Shown here piece after piece: positions 3,322 through 4,584 of a stretch of DNA of 27,643 bases. Location of the stretch: NCBI GenBank assembly GCA_018826025.1, contig JAHKAK010000007.1, forward strand, positions 1 to 27,643, given 5' to 3'. Each line of letters opens with the position of its first letter. Position 1 is the first letter of the stretch. A program made the translations under genes and the position numbers. The notes under the pieces are model-generated. The model was not told where the DNA came from. It ran no database searches and saw nothing but the letters and a program-made list of their open reading frames with translations. This DNA comes from Patescibacteria group bacterium (GTDB lineage: Bacteria; Patescibacteriota; Minisyncoccia; Portnoybacterales; GWB1-42-6).

Positions 3322-3349
3322 ATTATACCAGCGCCAAAAACCTTGTCAA
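3322..3349 (-). promoter_or_regulatory. Near-consensus sigma70 promoter upstream of DUF3800
   Basis: Minus strand TTGACA-N16-TATAAT with TGn extension. Confidence 0.7.
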
Positions 3350-3531: not shown

Positions 3532-3632
3532 CCCCGTTAGAAATTATCGGATAATCTTTTAGCTCATAATAAAGCAATCATCTTTAAACAAACTCTCTGC
3601 CATAATAAATTGTCTAATAATTTCTAACGGGG
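3532..3632. mobile_element. MITE-like element with CCCCGTTAGAA-type terminal inverted repeats (copy 2)
   Basis: CCCCGTTAGAAATTA(3532-46)/TAATTTCTAACGGGG(3618-32), perfect 15-bp inverted repeat; interior unrelated to copy 1. Confidence 0.6.
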
Positions 3633-3715
3633 CTTACCCGTTCGCGCCTGCCCCGTAGCGTTCCGCCAGCAGGCGGATCTGCTACCGGGGCGAATTAGAC
3701 CATAGCGCGCGGCAC

Positions 3716-4382
3716 GACATTCTGACATTCTTGAGAATGTTGGAATGTCATTTTAAGCTTTCAGATTAGGCAATAACCCTTCAACGGCTCAACCCGTTGA
3801 GCCGTTAGATTTTTTCATAAGACGGCTTGATGAAGTCGGGCTTTGGCGGGTTTCAATACACTACATCCTTACAAACTCCAGTTTTTAAGGATGTTATTGG
3901 TACATCAATGCCCTAATCCATCCCAACGGCTGGCTGAAGTCAGACTTCAGTAGATTTCAAGTTCTCAAGAACTTGGGAATAAAAACTACTAAACAGACTT
4001 CAACTAGAGTTACGGCTCAAGGCCGAGCTAAGCTCGGCTCAAGCCGGTTTGAGCCGTAGCGATAAAAGACGTATCGGACAATTCTATGGAATTGTTCAAT
4101 GAAACACGGGTTCATTTTAACGCGTAGAAAGCGCCTTTTTGCGATCCCTGCTGGATAATCTTGCTGTCTTTTTCCAACTCGTCCAGATAACGGGTGGCCG
4201 TGGCATCCGAAAGTTTATAACACCACGACATACCAACATTCTCAAGTTTGTTGGTATGTTATTGGTACATCAATGCCCTAATCCATTCCCGCCCAAGGCG
4301 GGCAAGCCAGCGGCTGGCTGAAGTCAGGATTCAGCGGGTTTCACAGATTTAACTTTACGGCTCAAGGCGGTTTGAGCCGTAA
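3716..4382. repeat. Cluster of repeated multi-hairpin units (two near-complete units plus partial modules)
   Basis: 31-bp identical block at 3891-3921 and 4256-4286; 17-bp identical block at 3927-43 and 4311-27 (diverged third copy 3823-55); ACGGCTCAA..TTGAGCCGT hairpins at 3783, 4011, 4356; covarying 32-nt hairpins at 3863 and 4228. Confidence 0.85.
4112..4231 (-). pseudogene. C-terminal winged-HTH fragment
   Basis: (M)SWCYKLSDATATRYLDELEKDSKIIQQGSQKGAFYALK*, resembles the recognition helix plus wing of DeoR-like wHTH; ATG is supplied by the adjacent hairpin. Confidence 0.55.
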
Positions 4383-4466
4383 AATGACTTATTATCAGCT
4401 TACTCCAAAAACCCATTCTTTTCAAACTAAAAAACACCAGTTTTAGCTGGCGCATTAAAAATAACA

Positions 4467-4584
4467 TCACCCTAACCCTCTTCTTGAAAAGGAGGGGGGG
4501 AAATTTTAAATCCCTCCTGCCCTTCTTTTAAAAAGGGCGGGGAAATTTTAAAAATCCCCCTTAATCCCCCTTTTTCAAAGGGGG
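4467..4584. repeat. Three tandem pyrimidine/purine hairpins (CCCTAACCCTCT..AGAGGG family)
   Basis: CCCTC..GAGGG, CCCTT..AAGGG, CCCCCTTT..AAAGGGGG units separated by AAATTTTAAA. Confidence 0.75.

Follow-up and report, generated by a model that had tools for sequence, protein, structure and literature searches.

In the window analysed here, the 27,643 nucleotides (nt) of contig C106 from the genome of a tiny groundwater Patescibacteria whose named relatives are Candidatus Portnoybacteria, the stretch from 3,716 to 4,382 carries repeated hairpin modules. Our comparisons suggest that it probably consists of decayed junctions of a small-gene array, made of predicted ArsR operators and repetitive extragenic palindromic (REP)-like hairpins and retaining a history of deletions. 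It is neither a new RNA gene nor an attC-like substrate. The original prediction had described a repeated unit of four modules, C-D-B-A, and had taken it for an undescribed non-coding RNA (ncRNA) or a single-stranded DNA substrate of a recombination or REP type. We propose instead that the stretch would be the non-coding remains of a minus-strand array downstream of nrdG, in which a fixed junction would have joined small accessory genes.

All modules are dispersed repeats of the 0.9-Mb host genome (G000; 43% GC, 121 contigs), and none is specific to this locus: the 700-bp stretch has 83 matches in the rest of the genome, and a module search counted 28 to 30 copies of C, about 32 of A, 16 to 22 of B and 10 of D. 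The repeated units are real and lie where they had been described, as a repeat finder recovers the C+D block twice (direct repeats of 66 nt with 82% identity, at 3859-3924 and 4224-4289), B three times (3819-3855, 3923-3959 and 4307-4343) and A three times (3783-3806, 4010-4058 and 4355-4382). The core of D is identical in both copies, with 0 matches expected by chance, so its reported invariance stands. A third C-family palindrome at 3717-3748, here called X0, and a partial fourth at 3961-3986 had been overlooked. The modules form a real, undescribed repeat family that has no Rfam family and is not CRISPR, attC or insertion sequence ends; the search for homologs elsewhere found them throughout the genome, and C also in relatives. 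They recur in set orders, B-D-C ten times and, with two further modules, Y-C-Z-A about six times (the latter again on contigs C35, C21, C45 and C44). Contig C33 shows what such junctions separate, as they lie there between unrelated, co-oriented small genes for a secreted protein, a tetratricopeptide-repeat (TPR) protein, ArsR, a membrane-anchored winged-helix protein, DUF3955, a Zn-ribbon protein, DUF7670 and acylphosphatase, with C a few bases ahead of a TATAAT box and the next ATG. The plus-strand order C-D-B-A is therefore a minus-strand junction that would run from the stop codon of one gene through the A hairpin, the B hairpin, the D linker, the C palindrome and a -10 box to the next gene.

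The module that carries this interpretation is C, a 32-nt inverted repeat with two-fold symmetry of the form 15-2-15. Its pattern, ACAT-N9-CT-NN-AG-N9-ATGT, occurs 28 times in the host genome and 1 to 7 times each in 11 of the 58 other genomes of the order, and the reversed control pattern has 0 occurrences in genomes of the order. It is linked most closely to a gene for a 95-aa ArsR-family protein (Pfam HTH_5/HTH_20), whose nearest solved relatives are HlyU, CadC and SmtB-type repressors. Among the 59 genomes of the order, the palindrome is found in 12, the ArsR gene in 10 and both in nine, and each is found in 0 of the 36 genomes of family f6. The host genome has four ArsR paralogues, at C33:13203-13490, C112:3539-3844, C39:1117-1395 and C99:6042-6305; in every subfamily two palindrome copies bracket arsR, and paralogues of 37% identity have their own palindrome flavour at the same two places. 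We then scanned Patescibacteria with one genome per species, which gave 273 ArsR relatives, and counted sites in the best 80 loci, from many lineages. An upstream site is present in 76/80 loci, at a modal distance of 16 nt from the ATG, and 55 of these 76 sites have a TTGAGA-like centre. At 31 loci a TATAAT-like box begins exactly 4 nt past the upstream site, giving a -35 box, 16 nt and a -10 box, with 6 nt left to the ATG. A second site, found in 74/80 loci, starts 2-5 nt past the first base of the stop codon, and protein and site are 75-91% identical across many Patescibacteria lineages.

Taken together, these data indicate that C, X0 and the core of a module E described below are most likely double-stranded operators bound by small repressors of the ArsR family. 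Where the site has its common form, the centre would supply a -35 box (TTGAGA), followed 16 nt downstream by TATAAT and, 6 nt further on, by the ATG; as the centre of the site is the -35 box, a bound dimer would block RNA polymerase. The second copy, at the stop codon of the regulator, would be the operator of the next gene. Judging by the spacing, upstream copies should lie outside the mRNA, since they precede a -10 box that is 6 nt from the ATG. Full-text literature searches found no description of this regulator-site pair.

The features are given below in window coordinates; z values are those of single-strand DNA folds.

3651..3716, minus strand: module Y, a GC-rich hairpin with a GGTCTAATTCG motif that accompanies subfamily-2-type palindromes; 11 genomic copies.
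3717..3748, plus strand: X0, a 32-nt C-family palindrome of ArsR-subfamily-2 flavour, hybrid (left arm TCTGA, right arm TCCAA); DNA fold -8.3 kcal/mol, z -5.2; this flavour brackets subfamily-2 arsR genes.
3752..3782, plus strand: module Z, a linker (TTTAAGCTTTCAGATTAGGCAA); 6 genomic copies, always by X0-type palindromes or A hairpins.
3783..3806, no strand: A0, REP-like hairpin AACGGCTCAAC-CC-GTTGAGCCGTT; z -6.2; terminator-like call on the plus strand.
3819..3855, minus strand: B0, degenerate B copy, 68% identical to B1; z -0.95.
3863..3894, minus strand: C1, 32-nt ArsR-type palindrome with CCTTA arms and minus-strand centre CTGGAG; z -5.9; five identical copies on C33, two of them bracketing arsR-1a.
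3891..3921, minus strand: D copy 1, unstructured linker ahead of C in gene direction; z +0.4; always in the order B-D-C.
3923..3959, minus strand: B1, hairpin GGCTGAAGTCAGACTTCAGTA-GATT, member of the (A)ATC-N4-GARGT-N3-ACYTC-N4-GAT(T) family; z -2.4.
3957..3986, no strand: core of module E, a partial ArsR-subfamily-3-type palindrome (GTTCTCAAGAAC plus right arm TTGGGAATA).
4010..4058, no strand: A1, A hairpin of TACGGCTCAAG subtype with a 22-nt insert (palindrome GCCGAGCT-A-AGCTCGGC plus a duplicated arm); z -5.3.
4035..4213, minus strand: remnant of a winged-helix gene (membrane-anchored), its last 33 codons (4115-4213) and 3' untranslated region (UTR); first 87 codons deleted.
4210..4227, minus strand: promoter remnant CGTGGTGTTATAAACTTT of TGnTATAAA type, whose counterpart at the intact locus runs up to the winged-helix ATG.
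4228..4259, minus strand: C2, 32-nt ArsR-type palindrome with ACCAA arms and minus-strand centre CTTGAG; z -5.3; identical copies on C56 and C112; the same flavour brackets arsR-1b.
4256..4286, minus strand: D copy 2, identical to copy 1.
4287..4309, no strand: extra GC hairpin CCGCCC-AA-GGCGGG of unit 2, also found on C92 and missing from unit 1 (13 junction copies aligned).
4307..4343, minus strand: B2, degenerate B copy with 6/8 stem pairs; z -1.0.
4355..4382, no strand: A2, A hairpin of TACGGCTCAAG subtype; z -5.6.
3532..3632, no strand, context outside the finding: long hairpin like a miniature inverted-repeat transposable element (MITE), with inverted ends CCCCGTTAGAAATTAT; inverted repeat I3, with 35 such ends in the genome.

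The genome has 12 sites of the subfamily-3 type found in E, and half a dozen of these surround the subfamily-3 arsR on contig C99; these six (C99:5262-9320) are TATTCT..GTTCTYRAGAAC..AGAATA palindromes and may be a local regulon or an array. The CCCCGTTAGAAATTAT-ended MITE-like elements have unrelated interiors and also occur at window position 768 and at L024:1067-1131, beside a tRNA gene. As for D, public metagenomes have it in contigs of the same lineage only. A short open reading frame in it, MLLVHQCPNP..., is out of frame in unit 2, and D was rejected as a coding segment; its alignment with the 3' end of arsR is only suggestive of a relic.

The original prediction had argued from compensatory base changes that structure is under selection. 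The C1, C2, X0 and three A sequences do fold strongly as single-strand DNA (z -5.2 to -6.2, with 0 of 200 shuffles as good). B0 and B2 are at the level of shuffles, B1 is weak and D is unstructured, so the statement that B still pairs in all three copies does not hold; all eight stem pairs are present in just 4/16 genomic B copies, and the stems decay without compensation. Between C1 and C2, three compensatory pairs exist at 5/28, 7/26 and 8/25, but the changes are not fully compensatory, as uncompensated ones lie at 10/23, 12/21 and 13/20; the mismatch at 10/23 is C.T and belongs to C1, and those at 12/21 and 13/20 are T.T and belong to C2. Pairing statistics from 184 C-family sites, Patescibacteria-wide, show A.A mismatches at pairs 12/21 and 13/20 in 100 and 107 sites, respectively, and the commonest form keeps both. 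A site has on average 11.5 of 15 Watson-Crick pairs, and pairing is perfect in 6-8 of about 75 sites per class. The half-site variants CCTTA and ACCAA are both distributed across Patescibacteria, and at least 37 sites are hybrids of the CCTTA/ACCAA type. To control for relatedness, we set the mismatch between the two arms of a single site against that between arms drawn from the two sites of a locus, and it was 1.51 within and 1.76 between sites (20 vs 13 loci, p=0.30). Without a significant excess of symmetry, the arms fit draws from the genome's pool of acceptable half-sites, which is the pattern predicted for a dimeric DNA-binding protein and weakens the case for selection on structure. We therefore consider that the C data fit a protein-binding site better than a selected hairpin, and the chain from compensatory changes to selected structure to ncRNA breaks at the hybrid half-sites, the conserved A.A mismatches and the symmetry test. 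Compensatory-looking differences between palindromes need a half-site-pool control before structure is inferred from them.

Several observations weigh against reading the C sites as ArsR operators. Matched arms across the candidate phyla radiation (CPR) exceed independence, with an odds ratio of about 8 at pair 5/28, and the within-locus control removes most of this excess. A promoter scan found no sigma-70 match after C1 or C2, the window copies have no intact gene behind them, and no arsR gene follows the three C-family copies in the window. The CTGGAG-centred form, to which C1 and all C33 copies belong, has no -35 box. Copies are letter-identical within an array and differ between arrays, a sign of recent copying and not of an old regulon. 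In two unrelated genomes, GC-rich hairpins of about 33 nt interrupt the palindrome exactly at its centre, after CTTG, at a downstream arsR site on L064 (G015:C2) and at a downstream site on L123, a Doudnabacteria contig; these insertions look centre-targeted, hinting that the site may be extruded as a cruciform. Finally, an RNA contig runs from the 3' end of arsR-1b through its hairpin, and downstream C copies may have a role at the RNA level.

The locus is a lineage-specific filling of a variable gap. It lies between comEC, into which a DUF3800 gene is inserted, and nrdG, and the comEC-nrdG gap measures 12 bp, 205 bp and 734 bp in the sister genomes G002, G003 and G001, respectively, and 2196 bp here, with mutually unrelated fillings. 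An independent metagenome has the locus at 99.8% identity with its structure unchanged. The deletions can be followed against L170, a metagenome contig of a related strain that joins contigs C112 and C40 and holds the intact paralogue, B-D-C-arsR1b-C-(TGnTATAAA)-membrane winged-helix gene-A. Window positions 4226-4288 match L170:38-100, the D-C block upstream of arsR; 4210-4262 equal L170:399-451 at 100%, the C site that follows arsR, together with its promoter; and 4035-4210 match L170:713-888 at 93%, covering the last 33 codons, the 3' UTR and the A hairpin. Unit 2 thus derives from the intact locus as a copy that first lost arsR and then 262 nt of the next gene. The arsR gene was lost between its two C sites, and unit 1 lost its gene entirely; since the sites are long direct repeats, recombination between them would delete and duplicate gene units. 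The winged-helix fragment reported between the units is confirmed by 18/23 identities to the C33 gene and by its translation, which is 88% identical to residues 87-119 of the product of the intact C40/L170 gene, and the 22-nt insert in A1 with its duplicated arm is visible against the intact paralogue. The same deletion junction, CTTT|CGGATG, is found on C43, so the decayed composite has itself been copied. Hybrid sites (X0, C92 and C43) and the differing gene order of arrays in genomes of the same genus fit repeated exchange within palindromes.

Other loci show comparable remains. The first ~18 codons of the winged-helix gene occur three times on C33 (11120-11200, 13068-13150 and 13574-13630), and two of these copies end just before a C palindrome. 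In a related strain, L169:601-660 has a decayed arsR start (ATG to ACG, truncated after ~12 codons) behind an intact B-D-C-TATAAT. At C56:2170-3143 lies an insertion sequence whose terminal inverted repeats (TGCTCTGTAGAAAACATCTGTTTT) measure 24 bp and whose target, GTCAGGTA, is duplicated; its arrival is recent because the otherwise identical metagenome contig L169 lacks it. An empty site for the arsR cassette of G003 was not obtained in G002, where synteny is broken. Apparent read joints that resembled deletions were rejected, being paralogous loci (for example C80 and C33). Close to the stretch, a sequence that matches the sigma-70 consensus perfectly, TTGACA-16-TATAAT preceded by a TG, stands at 3322-3349 (minus strand) ahead of the DUF3800 gene; the promoter scan did not recover the minus-strand TTGAAA-17-TAAGCT motif that had been suggested near 4400-4425. 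After nrdG, a terminator-like palindrome GGGGGATTTTTAAAATTTCCC at 4540-4560 has a word depth of 2176 in a biofilm metagenome with flanks below 10, so it is common to many other organisms or loci.

In a rival reading, C palindromes would themselves be site-specific recombination sites, with a 13-6-13 core like lox, FRT or dif, that bound mobile cassettes and are exchanged in their CTNNAG centre by a tyrosine recombinase. The hybrids C92, C43 and X0, which combine left and right arms of different variants, would be expected of such sites, as would flanks whose divergence begins exactly at the site edges, an arsR cassette in different contexts in three genomes of one genus, and arrays of small, unrelated, co-oriented genes with directly oriented sites; the genome also has two Xer-like tyrosine recombinases. 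Both, however, are below the integron-integrase cut-off and neither adjoins an array, and the arms vary freely where a recombinase would read them. The idea leaves the fixed spacing to -10 boxes and start codons unexplained, whereas homologous recombination between 32-60-bp direct repeats accounts for the arsR deletion, and most CPR genomes have just two sites, around arsR. We consider it unlikely. An integron was rejected, as the best tyrosine recombinase reaches 217 bits where the cut-off is 265, in a two-stretch match that skips the IntI-specific segment. The sites are also not attC, having no R''-L''/L'-R' boxes with RYYYAAC/GTTRRRY cores and conserved ends ACAT/ATGT instead. The dif consensus has the core CATAA-N6-TTATG, which is missing here, and with many sites per genome C was rejected as a dif/Xer site. 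A CRISPR array was rejected, since the repeats are 32-nt palindromes between whole genes, spaced 120-1300 bp apart.

There is a small chance that operator palindromes double as joints of a Patescibacteria cassette-shuffling system, with exchange at the centre, maybe through cruciform or hairpin extrusion and an HUH or Xer-like enzyme. If this were true, integron-like arrays without an integron integrase would gain, lose and reorder genes that come with an operator and a promoter of their own, and arsR plus its two sites would itself be a small mobile unit that spreads among CPR lineages.

Besides the predicted operators, the stretch contains A and B, which are REP-like hairpins, B being of the type associated with RAYT-like HUH genes (RAYT, REP-associated tyrosine transposase). 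A occupies about 32 intergenic loci, where it was never found between divergent genes, and has a conserved stem of 10-11 bp, CGGCTCAA...TTGAGCCG, variable loops and tandem arm duplications. Its flanks read (C/T)AA-CGGCTCAA, those of B AATC...GATT, and no GTAG or CGTC head by the stem was recognised on A or B flanks. The strict B-family pattern has 22 copies against 1 for the control, and its outer stems covary. RAYT-like HUH (Y1) genes are present at L024:1247-2006 (C87) and L023:230-1050 (C65), encoding 229 and 238 aa, and each has its own family palindrome at both flanks and twice within the coding sequence: the commonest B-family member on C87 and a variant of its own on C65. The proteins score above the Pfam Y1_Tnp cut-off and below the NCBIfam REP-transposase cut-off (32 vs 80 bits). 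Thus, the REP-type part of the original prediction is supported for B by this RAYT-associated architecture and plausible for A, but it does not extend to C, which tracks arsR.

A reading in which all hairpins, C included, are REP or REPIN (REP doublet) type single-stranded DNA elements spread by RAYT-like HUH transposases is quite unlikely. It would make the mosaic a pile-up like that of bacterial interspersed mosaic elements (BIMEs), and it draws on the two RAYT-like genes with their B-type palindromes, on the A loci avoiding divergent promoter regions, on the BIME-like combination of modules, and on a non-functional C-(gene remnant)-A composite that two or more loci share, down to the deletion junction. 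However, a search of the genome found neither C nor A beside RAYT-like genes, C follows arsR and not RAYT across Patescibacteria, neither A nor C showed inverted REP doublets, and the RAYT-like proteins fall short of the REP-transposase cut-off.

Even less can be said for the unit acting as RNA, either as a structured ncRNA or as 3'-end hairpins (terminators, exonuclease stabilisers) of upstream genes, which we judge highly improbable. REP hairpins are known to stabilise mRNAs (PMC2817692, PMC3733652), C and A fold strongly, T runs follow A0 and some downstream C copies, the CTGGAG centre, which allows full inner pairing, is found in 23/74 downstream versus 14/76 upstream sites, and the arsR-1b contig mentioned above does extend over a hairpin. 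However, Rfam gave 0 matches at the gathering score (at a permissive threshold the best were chance miRNA/snoRNA models), a tRNA scan of the stretch found nothing, and sister genomes do not conserve the locus. The upstream copies are placed before the inferred start of transcription, the C mismatches are conserved and the arms show no excess symmetry, B decays uncompensated and D is unstructured, and the terminator-like calls for B and X0 on C33 are on the strand opposite to the genes. One metatranscriptome with this organism has no RNA contig unique to 3900-4200, and as it consists of short assembler contigs that break at every repeat, this near-zero coverage is uninformative and absence cannot be demonstrated from it.

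If the C sites are ArsR operators, as we favour, the pair would matter because almost nothing is known of gene regulation in the uncultivated, ultra-small Patescibacteria, and a regulator and site preserved nearly letter for letter across lineages would give a directly testable regulon. The host genome would represent an extreme state, with ~30 sites and four regulator paralogues, in which sites became breakpoints at which small accessory genes were duplicated, truncated and lost; this bears on accessory-gene turnover in streamlined genomes.

The arrangement resembles ArsR/SmtB autoregulation (SmtB, CzrA and CadC, with HlyU nearest by sequence) in having a small winged-helix, dimer-type protein, paralogues with their own site flavours, and a long two-fold symmetric site, here a predicted operator, that overlaps its own promoter. 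Unlike the 12-2-12 sites of that family, the form here is 15-2-15, with each arm a tandem ACAnnCT repeat; moreover, a second copy lies across or just past the stop codon of the regulator in most loci, conservation is near-literal across Patescibacteria, and the many sites of this genome are part of a portable junction. The REP, BIME and REPIN-RAYT systems of Proteobacteria (PMC2817692, PMC3116915, PMC3733652) likewise combine short intergenic palindromes, here in tens of copies, into mosaics on the 3' sides of genes, with an HUH Y1 gene flanked by one palindrome type, here that of B architecture. In contrast to those systems, A has no GTAG/CGTC head and copies number tens, not hundreds, and the RAYT-like proteins of this 0.9-Mb patescibacterium are 229-238 aa, below the family cut-off, with a palindrome inside their own coding sequence. 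Integron arrays share with these arrays small, unrelated, co-oriented genes between imperfect palindromes, and a gene remnant lies between two units here; unlike in integrons, there is no integron integrase, the sites have neither R''/L''-L'/R' boxes nor a GTTRRRY core, every gene comes with a -10 box of its own, the site has 32 nt versus 57-141 nt for attC, and the hybrid arms point to exchange inside the site and not at its edge. Modular intergenic repeats are also known as the BOX elements of Streptococcus pneumoniae, and near-identical promoter segments before non-homologous genes as mobile promoters. Our modules are similar to these in their modularity and in placing such promoter-bearing segments before non-homologous genes, and have no sequence relation to them; one of our modules is also associated with a particular family of regulators.

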